A stretch of DNA of 64,000 nt from Microbacterium sp. (GTDB lineage Bacteria; Actinomycetota; Actinomycetes; Actinomycetales; Microbacteriaceae). Shown piece by piece: positions 55,941 to 61,600 of the stretch; the first letter of the stretch is position 1; every line of letters begins with the position of its first letter. The stretch covers positions 2,748 through 66,747 of the forward strand of contig NZ_JAYRDE010000004.1 of NCBI RefSeq assembly GCF_041909575.1, written 5' to 3'. The notes under the pieces were generated by a model that ran no database searches, was not told the DNA's origin, and was given only the letters and a program-made list of their open reading frames with translations. A program made the translations under genes and the position numbers.

Positions 55941-56240
55941 ATGCCCACCTACGCCTACGCCTGCAAGCAGTGCGGCCACCGCTTCGACGCCGTGCAGTCC
56001 TTCGCCGACCCCACCCTCACCGAGTGCCCCGAATGCGGCGGACCGCTGCGCAAGGAGTACGGCTCGATCGGCGTGACCTTCAACGGCTCGGGCTTCTACC
56101 GCACCGACTCGCGCGCGTCGGGTTCGGGCGGCGGGACGGATGCCTCGGCTGGCGCCTCCTCGTCGGGTTCGGCATCATCGAAGTCCGAGGCGAAGCCGGC
56201 GGCGTCCTCCGCGAAGCCGGCGGCCTCGTCCGGGTCCTGA
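55941..56240 (+). CDS. FmdB-family zinc-ribbon protein
   Basis: MPTYAYACKQC...CPECGG, FNGSGFYRTDSR. Confidence 0.92.
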   Translation: MPTYAYACKQCGHRFDAVQSFADPTLTECPECGGPLRKEYGSIGVTFNGSGFYRTDSRASGSGGGTDASAGASSSGSASSKSEAKPAASSAKPAASSGS

Positions 56241-56293
56241 CCGGCGGGGCCGGGTCCACACCGGCGGAAGCCGGCGACAGTGAGGAGCAGCAC

Positions 56294-56707
56294 GTGATCA
56301 GAGGCTTCAAGGAGTTCATCCTCCGCGGCAACGTCATCGACCTGGCCGTCGCGGTGGTCATCGGCGCGGCGTTCACGGCGGTCGTCAATTCGATCGTCGC
56401 GAGCATCATCAATCCGCTCATCGAACTCTTCTGGAAGCCCGACGCGAACGGGAAGATCGGCTTCACCGTGGAGGGCCTGTGGGGCCCGGTCACCTTCCCG
56501 ATCAGCGACCTGATCAACGCGATCATCGCGTTCCTCGCGGTGGCCGTGGTGGTCTACTTCGTATTCGTCTACCCGATGAACCGGATCAAGGAGCGCGCCG
56601 CCGCCAAGGCCGGCGTCTCCCCCGCCGACGAGGAGCCGAAGCTCCCCACCGAGCAGGAACTGCTCGTGCAGATCCGCGACCTGCTCGCCGCCCAGCCGAA
56701 GGCCTGA
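56294..56707 (+). CDS. mscL: Large-conductance mechanosensitive channel
   Basis: GFKEFILRGNVIDLAVAVVIG.AF; LL.QIRDLL; RBS GAGGAG. Confidence 0.95.
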   Translation: MIRGFKEFILRGNVIDLAVAVVIGAAFTAVVNSIVASIINPLIELFWKPDANGKIGFTVEGLWGPVTFPISDLINAIIAFLAVAVVVYFVFVYPMNRIKERAAAKAGVSPADEEPKLPTEQELLVQIRDLLAAQPKA

Positions 56708-56989: not shown

Positions 56990-57184
56990 TCAATAGTGCG
57001 GGGGCACGTCCTGCCTCAGGCGCTCGTCGTTCGGGCCGGTAGAGGCAGCGGATGCCGCGGCGCGGCCGGGATCCGCGGACTCGTCGCCCGCCACCGGCTC
57101 GGCGCTCGTACCGGGGGCCGGGGTCAGCCGCACCCGACGGGAACCGGGGACCCGCTCGATGCGCTGGCGCTCAGTCGGACACAT
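56990..57184 (-). CDS. Small conserved-looking hypothetical protein
   Basis: RRVRLTP..G and terminal NDERLRQDVPPHY; overlaps the stop of the upstream large gene. Confidence 0.6.
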   Translation of the reverse strand: MCPTERQRIERVPGSRRVRLTPAPGTSAEPVAGDESADPGRAAASAASTGPNDERLRQDVPPHY

Positions 57185-60100
57185 CGAGCGGCTGCGTGTC
57201 GGTCTCGACGCGCGGGGCCTCGGGCGGCACGCCGAGCATCGCGGCGATCCGCTGGGCGACTCCCGCGGGGTCGCTGTACAGGTCGAACGAGTGCACGCGA
57301 ACGTAGTGCCAGCCGAGCCGGCGCAGGATCTGCGGCCGCAGTCGCAGCGACTCGCGCAGCGATTCGCCGATCGTCTCGGGGTCGCTCTCCACGACGACCG
57401 CCTTGCCGCCGTACTGCGCGACGAGCGGCAGCAGTCCGCGGTAGTGCACGTCGACCGAGAGCCCGCAGCGACGCAGTTCGCGCGCGAGCGCGAGGGTGAG
57501 CGGATCGGCGAGATCCTCGAGGCGGGCGTCTCGCGCCCGCGCGGCGATGCCCCCGAGGATCGACATCAGGGTCGCGGCTCCGTGCTCGAGGCGTCCGTCG
57601 TCGAAGGCCGAGGGGCGGATCGACGACACGATCACCATGGACCGGCGGGCGCGCGTCATCCCGACCGTGAGCAGGCGCTCCCCGTCGGGGGTCGACAGGT
57701 CGCCGAAGTCGCTGAGCACACGGCCGTGCTTGGTGAGCCCGAATCCGAGCGAGAAGATCACCCGGTCGCGGCTCTCGGCGACGGACTCCTCGAGGCTCAG
57801 CACGGCGAACGGCTCGGCGGTGTCGCGAGAGAGGAAGTCCGCGACATCCGATCGTCCGGCGAAAGCCGCCTCGACGGACGCGCGGATCCGCTCCGCGTGC
57901 CGCGGGCTGGCTGTCACGACCATGAGCGACTCCGAGCCGCGGTTGATCGCATGCTCGACGACGAGCGTCACGACGCGCTGCACCTCGGCGTCGGGGCTCT
58001 CGACCGCGCCGGTCACGGGATCGGGGGCTCCGGTGCCGCCTTCGACGTAGTCCACGCCCAGGCTGCCGCGCCCGAGGTACGACCCGGCCCACGGCAGCGA
58101 CACGATCTCGCCGCCGTAGAAGGCGTCGTTGACGAGTTCGGCGAGGTCCTCGCCGCCGGCGCGGTAGCTGCGGGTGAGCGTCTCGACGGGCAGCAGCTCG
58201 GCGAGGCGCTCGAACACGCTGACCGCGTCGAACGGCACCTCGGGCTCCTCTGCCGGCGCACCGGCGGCGACACGGAACGGCGTGGGCTTCTGCGTCACGG
58301 GGTCGCCGAACACGACGACCTGCCGGGCGCGGCGGAGCGCAGGCGCGGCTTCCGCGAGACACAGGGCCGCGGCATCCGCGATCACCACCACGTCGAACGA
58401 CGGCGCGGCCGGCAGGAGCGGAACGTCGTAGGGCGACGCCAGCCACACCGGCGCGAGCGTCCGCGAGAGAGTCGGCGCGACCTCGGCCAGCCGCGTCGCG
58501 GAGATCTCGCCGTTCTTGAGCGCGAGCTTCAGTGCGGCGGCCTCGTCGGACTCGTCCACGATGCCGATGCGCCACTGCGTCGCCAGCTGCGATGCGAGGA
58601 GAGGTCCGGATGCCGCGGCATGGGCCTCATCGACGAGCCGGAAGTCGCGTTCCAGGCGATCGACGACGGCGGTGTTGGCTCCGAGCACCGCACGGTCGGT
58701 GCGCAACAGCTGCTCGAGCGCGGACTGCCACCACGCGTACTCGAGCTCGTCGGCGACGCGCTCCTCGGGCACGTGCCGCACCGAGAGCTCGGTGAGCAGC
58801 GGCTCGAGGCCGAGCGCGGCGAGCTCGGTGCGCAGGGTGGCGCGCTCCTTGAGGTTGTCGAACACGTCGGATTCGGCGGCGAGGCCGGCGAGCGTGCGCA
58901 CGAGCTGCTTCACGGGTAGCGTGGCGAGACGCTCGGCGCCGGTGCGGCCGAGGATGGCGTCGAGTTCGCCCAGCTCCGCCTCGACGCGCGACCAGGCGAC
59001 GTGGACGTCGGCCAGGCCGATCGGCACCTCGGGCGTGACACCGGCGTCGACGAAGCGCTGCCATTCGGTGCGCTGCTGCTGGATGCGCACGAGCGCCTCG
59101 TACATGTCGGGCACGTGCACCCCGGGGCGCACGTACTCGCGCGAGAGCCGGCGCAGGCGGCGACGGTTGGCTCCGGTCATGTTCGGCGAGTCGCGGCGGG
59201 GTCCGTGCGCCTGGATGAGCTCGCCGAGCGGCCGCTCGAAGACCGTGAGGCTGAACTTGTCGAGCGAATCCCGGATGCCCTGCAGCACCCGCAGGTACGC
59301 CCCGAGCTCGGAGATCGTGTGGAAGGGGCGCATGCGCGTCTGCGCGATGAGCTCGTAGCCGCGCTCGAGCAGGCTGGGCAGCTCGCTGCGCTGCAGCTTG
59401 CCGGCGAGGGCGTGGGCGGCGCGGGCCTCCTCCGTCGTCGCGAACGACACGCCGTACCAGGGCGAGTCGTCGGGACCGAAGCGGAACTCCCCCAGCCGTG
59501 CGGCGGCGGCGAGCTTGGCGGCCGCTTCGGTGCGCGTGTCGGCCAGGCGCTCCAGGGTCACAGCGCCGAAACGCGCCGCAGTGGTCGGCGGGTTCTCGCG
59601 CCCGGCGAGCGTCGCGAGCGCGCGCAGGATCTCGAGCACCGAGACCCCGAGGGTCGGATGCTGCGCCGTGACCGCTCCGCGATAGTCGCGCAGCACGCCC
59701 CGGAGCCGGACGAGGGCGTCGTCGATGTCGGCGACCTTGGGCTTCTCGGCCTTCTCGTTGCGGCCGATCGCGCGGATGAGGTCGGCGCGCAGGCGCCGGG
59801 GCGAGACGGCGAGGCCGGGCAGGCCGACGGCGGCGAGGCGGTGGCGGATGCCGTCGATCGTCGAGCTGCGGGCGCTCACGACGAGCACGCGCTTGCCGTC
59901 GTGCACGAGCGCCCCGACGGCGTTGATCACGGTCTGGGTGCCGCCGGTGCCGGGAAGCGTGTGGACGGCGAGCGATTGTCCCGCGGTGATGCGGGCGAGG
60001 ACGCGCTCCTGCTCGGAGTCGGCGTCGAGGAGGAGGGTGTCGGCGGCGGGCGCGCGCTCGTCGGGGCCCACCGGCTCGACGGCGTCGCGGCGCAGCTGGA

Positions 60101-60890
60101 GCGTCTCGCGATCGGCGGGGTGACCGGCGAGCGCGTTGAGCACCGGGTGGTCGAGATCCGCCGCGTCGCGCGACATCCCGCTGCCGACGTCGGCGAAGCT
60201 CGAGACGAGCAGGCGCGGCTTGACGACGTAGGAGTCGATCCAGCCGGTCAGCGCGCGCAGGTGGTCGATGACGGGCTGCGGCTTGAACACGCCGCCCTCG
60301 TAGGCCAGGGCCGCGAGGCCGGCGCCGTCGAGCTCGATCGAGAAGTGGGCGAGCATCGCGCGCACGAGTTCGGGATTGACGATGAACGAGCCGTGGAGCT
60401 TCAGCTCGAAGTCGGAGTGATGGCGGCGGATGGCGAGCGGACGGAGCAGGATCGGCGCCGAGCACTCGAGCCCGCCGATGCGCCACTGGGCGAGGCCGAC
60501 GGCGAGATGCACGGACTCGAGGCCGCGGGTGGCGCGCAGCTCGACGTTCTTCGCGGTGATCCGCTCGGCGGCCAGGCGCGCGTTGCGCAGGGCGACCTCG
60601 TCGCGGAAGAGGTTCGACAGCAGCGTGGAGCGTCCGGTGATGAACTGGGGCAGGCTGCCCGGATGCGCCTTGGTGATCTCGATCGAGGCGTCGAGCGCGT
60701 CGGTGAAGTGCAGCAGCGTCGAACGGCCGCCGAGTTCGGCGGACTCCAGCCGCAGGCGCTCGCGCTCGGGGTCGGCGATGTGCGCCACCACGACATCGGG
60801 CTCGGCGAGGCCGAGATCGCTCGGCGTCACCGCGCTGCCGTGCACAGCGTCTTCTGCGCCGGCCACGACGCTGCCTTCTGCTCGCCACAC
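57171..60890 (-). CDS. Degenerate SF1 (Upf1/DNA2-like) helicase with C-terminal Vsr/DUF559-like nuclease fold
   Basis: DADSEQ, LPGTGGTQT, ADAAA, GDP, VGMTRAR, VESD...LRRLGW; TAGTGT -10 seven nt before GTG 60890. Confidence 0.88.
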   Translation of the reverse strand: MWRAEGSVVAGAEDAVHGSAVTPSDLGLAEPDVVVAHIADPERERLRLESAELGGRSTLLHFTDALDASIEITKAHPGSLPQFITGRSTLLSNLFRDEVALRNARLAAERITAKNVELRATRGLESVHLAVGLAQWRIGGLECSAPILLRPLAIRRHHSDFELKLHGSFIVNPELVRAMLAHFSIELDGAGLAALAYEGGVFKPQPVIDHLRALTGWIDSYVVKPRLLVSSFADVGSGMSRDAADLDHPVLNALAGHPADRETLQLRRDAVEPVGPDERAPAADTLLLDADSEQERVLARITAGQSLAVHTLPGTGGTQTVINAVGALVHDGKRVLVVSARSSTIDGIRHRLAAVGLPGLAVSPRRLRADLIRAIGRNEKAEKPKVADIDDALVRLRGVLRDYRGAVTAQHPTLGVSVLEILRALATLAGRENPPTTAARFGAVTLERLADTRTEAAAKLAAAARLGEFRFGPDDSPWYGVSFATTEEARAAHALAGKLQRSELPSLLERGYELIAQTRMRPFHTISELGAYLRVLQGIRDSLDKFSLTVFERPLGELIQAHGPRRDSPNMTGANRRRLRRLSREYVRPGVHVPDMYEALVRIQQQRTEWQRFVDAGVTPEVPIGLADVHVAWSRVEAELGELDAILGRTGAERLATLPVKQLVRTLAGLAAESDVFDNLKERATLRTELAALGLEPLLTELSVRHVPEERVADELEYAWWQSALEQLLRTDRAVLGANTAVVDRLERDFRLVDEAHAAASGPLLASQLATQWRIGIVDESDEAAALKLALKNGEISATRLAEVAPTLSRTLAPVWLASPYDVPLLPAAPSFDVVVIADAAALCLAEAAPALRRARQVVVFGDPVTQKPTPFRVAAGAPAEEPEVPFDAVSVFERLAELLPVETLTRSYRAGGEDLAELVNDAFYGGEIVSLPWAGSYLGRGSLGVDYVEGGTGAPDPVTGAVESPDAEVQRVVTLVVEHAINRGSESLMVVTASPRHAERIRASVEAAFAGRSDVADFLSRDTAEPFAVLSLEESVAESRDRVIFSLGFGLTKHGRVLSDFGDLSTPDGERLLTVGMTRARRSMVIVSSIRPSAFDDGRLEHGAATLMSILGGIAARARDARLEDLADPLTLALARELRRCGLSVDVHYRGLLPLVAQYGGKAVVVESDPETIGESLRESLRLRPQILRRLGWHYVRVHSFDLYSDPAGVAQRIAAMLGVPPEAPRVETDTQPLDVSD

Positions 60891-61063
60891 ACGAGCCACA
60901 CTAAGCGGCGATCCGCCGGGCCACTTGCAGCGGCGCCGAGTTTCGCGGTATTGGGACACGCCGAGTGATCAGCCCTTCCTCCCCAGCCCGCGAGCGACGC
61001 CTCCAGCACACAGCCTGTGCCCTGTGCGATCCGCCCGTCGCCCGGTCGCGCGAGGATGGTCGC

Positions 61064-61600
61064 ATGACCTCGCCGCACCCGCCCCGGTTCCTCGTCCACC
61101 CCTCTCCGGTCGGCGATGTCCTGATCGTCACGACCGACGACGGCGTGGTCACCCTCCACCCGTTCGAGGGTCCGCTCGGCGCCGAGCTCGAGCGCGTGGC
61201 GCTGGCGTTGCGAGAGCTTCCGGTTCCCGTCGAGACGGATGCCGCGACCGGCGACCTCGCCCATATCGCCGCCGCGCAGCTCGACGAGTACTTCGACGGC
61301 GAGCGCCGCGTGTTCGACCTGCCGCTGGACTGGCGACTCGTGCGCGGATTCACCCGCTCGGCGCTCGAGGCCGTGTGCGGCATCCCGTACGGCGAGACGG
61401 CCGGGTACGGCGAGGTCGCGATCAGCGCAGGGAGCCCGCGAGCTGCGCGCGCGGTCGGGACGGCGTGCGCGACGACCCCGTTCTCGATCGTCGTGCCGGT
61501 GCACCGCGTCGTGCGGGCGGACGGCTCGCTCGGCGAGTACGGCGGCCGGCCCGAGGTGAAGCAGTACCTCATCGATCTGGAGCGTGCCGCGGGCGTGTAG
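61064..61600 (+). CDS. Ogt/AGT-fold protein lacking the catalytic Cys (alkyltransferase-like)
   Basis: LDEYFDG, IPYGET..YGEVA, RAARAVGTAC, PVHRVV, YGG..VK..L. Confidence 0.88.
   Translation: MTSPHPPRFLVHPSPVGDVLIVTTDDGVVTLHPFEGPLGAELERVALALRELPVPVETDAATGDLAHIAAAQLDEYFDGERRVFDLPLDWRLVRGFTRSALEAVCGIPYGETAGYGEVAISAGSPRAARAVGTACATTPFSIVVPVHRVVRADGSLGEYGGRPEVKQYLIDLERAAGV

Follow-up and report, generated by a model that had tools for sequence, protein, structure and literature searches.

A Upf1-like protein of Microbacterium with conserved replacements in its ATPase motifs and a PPHW micro-protein companion

The Upf1-like superfamily 1B (SF1B) helicases, among them Upf1, IGHMBP2/SMUBP-2, Senataxin/Sen1, Aquarius and DNA2, are built on a RecA 1A/2A core that carries inserted accessory domains, and their eukaryotic members are active ATPases with GK[ST] and DE. 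Fold and family are also known for the DUF4011/Upf1-like helicase-nucleases, which have Hhe and ProA as defence members. Here we describe a protein of this kind encoded on the minus strand of a 64,000-nucleotide stretch of Microbacterium sp. DNA (hereafter the window; assembly GCF_041909575.1, contig NZ_JAYRDE010000004.1, positions 2,748 to 66,747). It shares with the Upf1-like helicases the core with its inserted domains, the Q-motif, GD, the motif IV Arg and motif VI, but it lacks both GK[ST] and DE, and it has in addition a DUF4011 N-terminal domain, an insertion of ~500 amino acids (aa) between Walker A and Walker B, and a Vsr-like C-terminal domain. Its motifs and their conservation suggest that it is probably a selected, hydrolysis-dead binding protein (a scaffold, sensor or clamp) that serves a housekeeping rather than a defence function. 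The features on which this proposal draws are the following.

57171..60866, minus strand: pseudo-helicase/pseudo-nuclease coding sequence; GC at third codon positions 0.92; identical to database proteins P0002/P0003
60360..60572, minus strand: DUF4011-like N-terminal region (residues 130-200 of P0001; PF13195, E=0.0023, below gathering score), well folded in the AF2 model
59931..59957, minus strand: degenerate Walker A, LPGTGGTQT, Lys to Gly (HTLPGTGGTQTV; Gly codon 59940-59942), by alignment to canonical PGTGK
58371..58397, minus strand: degenerate Walker B, FDVVVIADA, D-E to A-D (FDVVVIADAAAL), by alignment to IGHMBP2 and canonical DE
58284..58310, minus strand: motif III, FGDPVTQKP, GD kept and the Gln of GDxxQLPP lost or shifted, by family alignment
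58152..58172, minus strand: motif IV region, RSYRAGG, Arg kept and the His of WHYRS lost, by family alignment
57759..57794, minus strand: motif V, LEESVAESRDRV, QGDE lost and RD kept, by family alignment
57642..57662, minus strand: motif VI, GMTRARR, retained, by family alignment
57276..57443, minus strand: MTES_1575/Vsr-like nuclease-fold domain, first acidic residue replaced (LLPLVAQ), E-x-D and RLGW kept

A sequence-only reading of the window had described the gene as an intact helicase-like gene with systematically broken catalytic motifs. The minus-strand translation of 57171-60959 holds each motif string that it quoted, with replacements at the catalytic positions, and also contains the strings VVFGDPVTQKPT, TRSYRAGG, LSLEESVAESRDRV and GMTRARR. 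In phmmer alignments against the PDB, PGTGGT falls on PGTGKT of IGHMBP2 and VVVIADAAA on VVVIDECAQ, and a profile search agrees. ATPase-intact members of the family read PPGTGKSQTI, VVIFDEASQV, GDERQLPPT, WHYRS, LERVQGDERD, TRAR and RIDLAVE..VAVESD..RLGW. Two such members, from Angustibacter sp. Root456 (WP_082538059.1) and Intrasporangium chromatireducens (WP_034718103.1), are 1365-1372 aa long and have the domain order of the window protein; they keep PPGTGKSQT, DEASQ, GDxRQLPPT, WHYRS, QGDERD and RID..E.D, whereas the window protein has none of these.

We compared 41 representatives of the clade to which the window protein belongs (the dead clade below, a label inferred from motifs) with 23 canonical representatives. 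G303, K309, D830, E831, S833, Q858, H900, Q1029 and D1031, all invariant in the canonical proteins, are lost in the dead clade, and as aligned these are precisely the residues of ATPase motifs I, II, III, IV and V. The Walker B Asp position is occupied by Ala or Leu. The Lys position appears to be unconstrained, since different sub-clades have G, A, V, L, I, Q, Y, R, E or T there, and no new conserved basic residue was found near the P-loop in this comparison. Common to both clades are Q286 of the Q-motif, G306, G308, D825, G854-D855, R902 and D1034, as well as the arginines of TRARR in motif VI. These proteins still have the Gln of the Q-motif, the glycines of the P-loop, the Thr and the two Arg fingers, so that they may bind nucleotide without hydrolyzing it.

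The 121 closest database homologues, all from Microbacterium and at least 79% identical, read PGTGGTQT without exception (121/121), along with hhhhADA, GDPVTQ, SYRAGGED, (E/D)(E/D)(S/A)VAESRDRV and TRARR. Across 76 Microbacteriaceae species from about 20 genera, column identity was 0.95-1.00 in TLPGTGGTQT and about 1.0 in GDPVTQ, RSYRAGGEDL, SRDRV and TRARR, compared to a mean of 0.65, and the pseudo-motifs are among the best-conserved parts of the protein. The ratio dN/dS (NG86) was 0.04-0.11 for the closest species pairs, at dS of 0.2-0.5, and about 0.2 between the window and more distant species, where dS is saturating; the strong purifying selection seen in the former values agrees with the earlier proposal that the gene is selected. 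That the altered motifs are shared by orthologues and not strain-specific likewise holds, as they are near-invariant in both sets of homologues, but the claim does not extend to the more distant Angustibacter and Intrasporangium, which keep GK[ST]/DE. Therefore, the loss appears to be an old, clade-wide event inside the Micrococcales and not a trait of the whole family.

We used the C-terminal 1200 aa as query in a HMMER search of 1.84 billion representatives clustered at 50% identity, which returned 10,765 relatives, 2,588 of them below 1e-30. In an alignment of the 128 best full-length representatives, the Lys of Walker A and the DE of Walker B are both missing from 99 and both present in 23, so that loss of ATPase chemistry seems to be the usual state in this section of the DUF4011 family. 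In a tree of the 50%-identity representatives, the window protein sits in one large monophyletic clade without a single member that has the Lys or the DE. Mean identity within the dead clade is about 34%, and its members come from Microbacteriaceae, Agrococcus, Tropheryma whipplei, Arthrobacter, uncultured Micrococcaceae, Brevibacterium, Sediminivirga and freshwater Actinomycetota metagenome-assembled genomes (MAGs); the canonical members, with both Lys and DE, include Angustibacter and Intrasporangium. The T. whipplei copy (L001/L002 8001-11519, 1172 aa) is the most degenerate, with TPGAQVTQAV and a Walker B of LG, and its 1172-aa frame is intact in several strains of a species whose genome is only 0.93 Mb. 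In Angustibacter sp. Root456 the ATPase-intact member occupies the equivalent locus, followed by a 55-aa open reading frame (ORF) and then mscL, so that it has the same mscL-adjacent position as the window gene. Since this live member occupies the same locus, the dead and live forms appear to be positional orthologues, which would place the loss of the ATPase on a vertical lineage inside the Micrococcales.

Motif loss was also seen elsewhere in the family. A second, separate large clade of 1400-1700-aa proteins (P0224, P0182, P0229, P0248 and others) reads PPGSDV.., hhhhDA, GDPRR and RIPLAxG..VAVLTD, and is without ATPase and nuclease motifs. Many smaller, independent losses of motifs are scattered among the canonical members.

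The C-terminal domain of the window protein shares E-x-D and RLGW...RV with the Vsr/DUF559/MTES_1575 PD-(D/E)xK domains, and PF18741 matches its last 60 residues with E=2e-5 and 25.0 bits, compared to a gathering score of 38.2 (34.7 bits for the Arthrobacter orthologue). Canonical members read RID-LAVE ... VAVE[ST]D ... RLRxEQLxRLGWxxxRV, and the window protein reads GLLPLVAQ ... VVVESD ... LRRLGWHYVRV (LLP-LVAQ ... VVVESD ... RLRPQILRRLGWHYVRV). The alignment thus confirms that the first catalytic Asp has been lost (Pro here) while ExD and LGW are kept, as had been read from the translation. Where canonical MTES_1575 domains have the first acid of RID, the 76 Microbacteriaceae have P (29), A (26), T (12), S (4) or G (4), and because all of these occur the position appears to be unconstrained in this family. 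We infer that the nuclease-like domain is inactive.

Pfam recognizes DUF4011, AAA_11, AAA_12 and MTES_1575 in this order, each below its gathering score, which fits a diverged member of the family. The order matches that of the DUF4011 helicase-nucleases (DUF4011 - AAA_11 - AAA_12 - MTES_1575/DUF559-like), and the protein aligns over its full length to canonical members. The large insertion between Walker A and Walker B, roughly 500 aa, is helical and contains ELELAWWQS, the most conserved motif of the family. Searches of the PDB with phmmer and with a profile matched 4B3F/4B3G (IGHMBP2), 2XZL and 2XZO, and IGHMBP2 was the best match by sequence. An AlphaFold2 (AF2) model of residues 32-1231, built on a 61-sequence alignment, had a mean predicted local distance difference test score (pLDDT) of 88.0 and a predicted template modelling score (pTM) of 0.74. 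Foldseek related it with probability 1.00 to Aquarius, Senataxin/Sen1, IGHMBP2, Upf1, DNA2 and ZNFX1 (best fold matches 8XI2_Q, 8FTM, 4PJ3 and 4B3G), and a homologue from another sub-clade (L088, 1186 aa) gave an equivalent result. Structure prediction, which the sequence-only reading had put forward as a check on its proposal, thus yields a confident Upf1-like fold, and as modelled the protein is a well-folded, selected Upf1-like SF1B derivative and not a decaying gene.

The minus-strand ORF at 57171..60959 is the longest frame in this part of the window. The annotated start, GTG 60866, gives a product of 1231 aa (57171..60866), and an alternative in-frame GTG at 60890, 8 codons upstream, gives 1239 aa; the length of 1,240 aa assigned earlier is therefore dependent on the start chosen. 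GC by codon position is 0.76/0.49/0.92 in a window of roughly 72% GC, and the overlapping shadow ORFs differ from the gene in this respect. These values support the earlier description of an uninterrupted frame with normal codon usage, and the ORF is genuine. In databases the 1231-aa product (P0002/P0003, Microbacterium sp.) is named 'AAA family ATPase', exactly the automated label that the sequence-only reading had warned would hide the altered motifs. Among sequencing runs, the gene was found in metagenomic DNA only (activated sludge, share 0.99), and no RNA runs contained it.

The large gene is accompanied by a small one, which overlaps its end.

56990..57184, minus strand: companion gene, 64 aa, overlapping the stop codon of the large gene by 14 nt; C-terminus GPNDERLRQDVPPHY

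In the window the encoded peptide has the N-terminal motif RQRIERVxGSRRxxLTPAPGT, which is followed by a variable acidic linker. A companion ORF lies downstream of the large gene in 64-66 of 80 Microbacteriaceae loci surveyed. The homologues are 55-75 aa long and consist of a basic N-motif (RQR[IV]ERVxGSRRAxLTPAPGTDPSP), a variable acidic linker that often includes EDTDxxWG, and a near-invariant C-terminus, [GS]xNDxRL[RK]xD[VKR]PPH[WY]. The peptide is a separate gene in Brevibacterium and in Angustibacter, where it is encoded just downstream of the ATPase-intact member. Elsewhere it is part of the large protein: the 1411-aa Arthrobacter protein itself ends in ...WLQEQKPPHWG, and 29 of the 128 representatives have a fused PPHW tail, including the ATPase-intact Intrasporangium type. 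This alternation of split and fused forms is classical evidence that two proteins work together, and it suggests that the peptide works with the large protein; by its distribution, the peptide would predate the loss of the ATPase and would have survived it. Near the T. whipplei copy no PPHW peptide gene was found, and the small ORF that follows that gene was rejected as a candidate, as it is not homologous. A profile search with the companion retrieved 1193 database clusters, all named 'hypothetical protein'. No Pfam or NCBIfam model matched it, and literature searches on DUF4011, ProA, Hhe, MTES_1575 and 'PPHW' returned nothing on the dead clade or the peptide; the companion is newly described here, as a family undescribed in Pfam, NCBIfam and the literature searched. 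Its acidic end with Pro-Pro and an aromatic residue may resemble SSB-type C-terminal tails.

The locus itself is stable. In the window the genes follow in the order GNAT (RimJ-like), GalU-like nucleotidyltransferase, 5-formyltetrahydrofolate (5-FTHF) cyclo-ligase, Zn-ribbon (FmdB-like), mscL, the small ORF, the pseudo-helicase, an Ogt-like gene and actP/DUF485. Essentially all 80 Microbacteriaceae loci contain the block that runs from the pseudo-helicase through the small ORF, mscL, fthf and galU to GNAT, and flanks of the mscL/fthf/galU type also occur at the orthologues in Arthrobacter, Brevibacterium, a freshwater MAG and T. whipplei. The gene is single-copy at this fixed housekeeping locus in every Microbacteriaceae genome sampled, no defence neighbours were found at the sampled Microbacteriaceae loci, and a collection of species-representative genomes contains at least 595 matching stretches. 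In Pseudomonas aeruginosa, a 'large DUF4011 gene' and a 'conserved small hypothetical gene' form a core-gene flank of the defence hotspot cDHS1 (PMC10250203); from this description, they could be a further case of a DUF4011 gene paired with a small gene in the core genome.

Several neighbouring genes deserve comment. The Zn_ribbon_8 (FmdB-like) gene at 55941-56114 on the plus strand, between the 5-FTHF cyclo-ligase gene and mscL, is present in all loci examined, which implies that the 245-aa ORF at 55970-56707 makes mscL too long at the 5' end. Three distant lineages of the dead clade carry, immediately upstream of the pseudo-helicase, a gene for a ~165-aa HNH endonuclease (L004 4122-4613, L087 3461-3961 and L088 5375-5869) with an NlpC/P60 gene before it. 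In Microbacteriaceae this pair lies farther off or is absent from the 6-kb flank. As the distance varies and the pair is absent at most loci, a functional link was rejected and the arrangement treated as plain synteny. The divergent Ogt/MGMT-like neighbour (61064-61600, plus strand) comprises both domains but has another residue in place of the active-site Cys: IVVPVHRVV aligns to IIVPCHRVI of the M. tuberculosis OGT (4WXD/4BHB), and the region of the conserved Asn is also altered (ACATTP). The 25 Microbacterium loci that cover this position read PVHRV (22) or PAHRV (3). As all of them carry one of these replacements, the neighbour appears to be a conserved pseudo-enzyme of the alkyltransferase-like (ATL) type; it adjoins the pseudo-helicase in the genus Microbacterium only.

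The intergenic region shared by these two divergent genes contains a candidate promoter for the pseudo-helicase.

60898..60903, minus strand: -10-like hexamer TAGTGT, 7 nt upstream of GTG 60890, identified by sequence conservation

The hexamer (TAGGGT or TAGTGT), its spacing and the GTG are kept in about 17 of 19 Microbacterium species, which makes a -10 element for a leaderless start at GTG 60890 plausible. A scan for sigma-70 promoters and terminators, which requires a -35 hexamer, found nothing. A 17-nt box, CCAATACCGCGAAACTC, at 60938-60954 (minus strand) is also conserved among Microbacterium species, as is GTGTGGCGAGCAGAA... directly after the TAG(T/G)GT hexamer. The box and the hexamer could be an operator together with a leaderless promoter.

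We also considered other explanations for the gene. The broken catalytic motifs and the Pfam matches below gathering scores could point to a pseudogene in the making in this strain, or to an annotation artefact. However, the frame is uninterrupted across hundreds of species, dN/dS is low, the predicted fold is confident and the replacement residues are conserved; comparison of the orthologues refutes this reading, to which we give practically no weight. An anti-phage protein of the Hhe, ProA or PDC-S37 kind, which might act in an abortive or decoy manner, is also very improbable. These families are the best family-level matches in NCBIfam/PADLOC (ProA 284 bits, PDC-S37 288 bits, Hhe 144 and 111 bits); the similarity extends over the 2A half of the helicase and the nuclease-like domain at the C-terminus, and the DUF4011 architecture is common to all. 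The curated cut-offs are far higher, however (1500 bits for ProA, NF058533, and 2000 bits for Hhe, NF042953), and the window protein is 600-700 aa shorter than ProA and Hhe, lacks the catalytic ATPase residues and is found at a core syntenic locus instead of in defence islands. Its single copy at a fixed housekeeping position devoid of defence genes, its retention in the reduced T. whipplei genome, and strong purifying selection in place of the turnover typical of defence genes all argue in the same direction, and a defence system was rejected on genomic context and curated cut-offs. For Microbacterium alone, the protein could be one arm of a module against DNA-alkylation damage, together with the divergent, Cys-less Ogt-like (ATL-like) protein and the small protein. 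The ATL-like gene, with PVHRV or PAHRV in place of PCHRV, is the divergent neighbour in 25/25 Microbacterium loci covering the position, and the intergenic region between the two genes contains conserved boxes. However, no such pairing occurs at about 50 other Microbacteriaceae loci or in any other genus with the pseudo-helicase (Arthrobacter, Brevibacterium, Tropheryma and the MAGs), and adjacency within one genus can be plain synteny. Because the ATL-like neighbour is confined to Microbacterium, such a module cannot account for the general conservation of the pseudo-helicase; as a general explanation it was rejected, and for the genus itself we find it improbable.

The main alternative is that the nucleotide pocket has been rewired, so that ATP or another nucleotide is still bound and its binding, or very slow hydrolysis, acts as a conformational switch (a clamp or timer) in an atypical NTP-dependent protein. 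Several observations speak for this and weigh against the hydrolysis-dead binding protein that we favour. There is little or no variation at Gln286, Gly306 and Gly308, Thr310, Gln311, the motif III GD, Arg902 and the arginines of TRAR in a clade of only ~34% mean identity; such conservation exceeds what a vestigial pocket should need and is compatible with nucleotide binding or even slow hydrolysis. The position of E831 is likewise fixed, as Asp in 40 of the 41 dead-clade representatives (98%), and conservation of the pseudo-motifs exceeds the protein average. In the nuclease-like domain, E-x-D and RLGW persist as invariant features of the 76 Microbacteriaceae and the Arthrobacter orthologue retains the full acidic triad, including the first Asp; for these reasons the loss of the nuclease would be later and less complete than that of the ATPase. 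The AF2 model of the naturally fused L088 protein also left the PPHW tail undocked, at pLDDT 48-66, and so lends no structural support to the proposed interaction with the partner peptide. Against a rewired pocket, the residue at the Lys position varies freely among sub-clades, neither G303 nor the Asp of Walker B, the Gln of motif III or the QG of motif V is left, and no compensating conserved Lys or Arg was found. We therefore consider a rewired pocket unlikely, and prefer a binding role without turnover, because the chemistry of hydrolysis has been removed while the fold, insertion, Q-motif, glycine loop, arginine fingers and tail remain.

The history suggested by these comparisons is that of a DUF4011 / Upf1-like SF1B protein with a Vsr-like (MTES_1575) domain that belongs to the core genome and is inherited vertically. 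Its ancestor was probably a Upf1-like translocase driven by ATP, which carried a Vsr-like nuclease and a PPHW tail and was already encoded at a housekeeping locus. In an ancestor within the Micrococcales, the Walker A Lys, Walker B Asp-Glu, motif III Gln and motif V QGxE would have been replaced, and in the Microbacteriaceae the first acidic residue of the nuclease as well. What would have been kept since, under strong purifying selection, is the channel-forming fold, the ~500-aa helical insertion, the Q-motif, the glycine loop, the arginine fingers and the tail. The present protein probably does not translocate at the expense of ATP, and its gene is not one of the mobile anti-phage genes; most likely the protein would act without turnover as a clamp, scaffold or sensor that binds nucleic acid, a partner or both in a housekeeping process, with the PPHW peptide as its regulatory, recruiting or gating arm. 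More tentatively, and by analogy, the pair could form a two-part housekeeping device of the Micrococcales in which a static nucleic-acid clamp or sensor, for example of stalled replication or transcription intermediates, is combined with an SSB-tail-like peptide that recruits or gates a partner enzyme. We hold this more specific version to be doubtful. If it were true, the live orthologues at the same locus would provide a before-and-after pair for the conversion of a motor into a non-enzymatic adaptor.

Bacterial pseudo-enzymes derived from helicases have hardly been studied. An important non-catalytic function is argued here by an order-wide core gene in which family-invariant motor residues have been replaced, by 1200 residues of fold under strong selection, by the micro-protein partner and by survival in T. 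whipplei. As Angustibacter has an ATPase-intact member at the same locus and Intrasporangium has canonical members, the system offers an experimentally tractable natural comparison. The findings are also relevant to the annotation of DUF4011 relatives as helicases or defence genes. Labels such as 'AAA family ATPase', 'DEAD/DEAH box helicase' and 'ATP-binding protein' would misstate what the protein can do, and since it fails both the curated cut-offs and the defining ATPase motifs, we advise against classing it as a functional helicase, as Hhe or as ProA.

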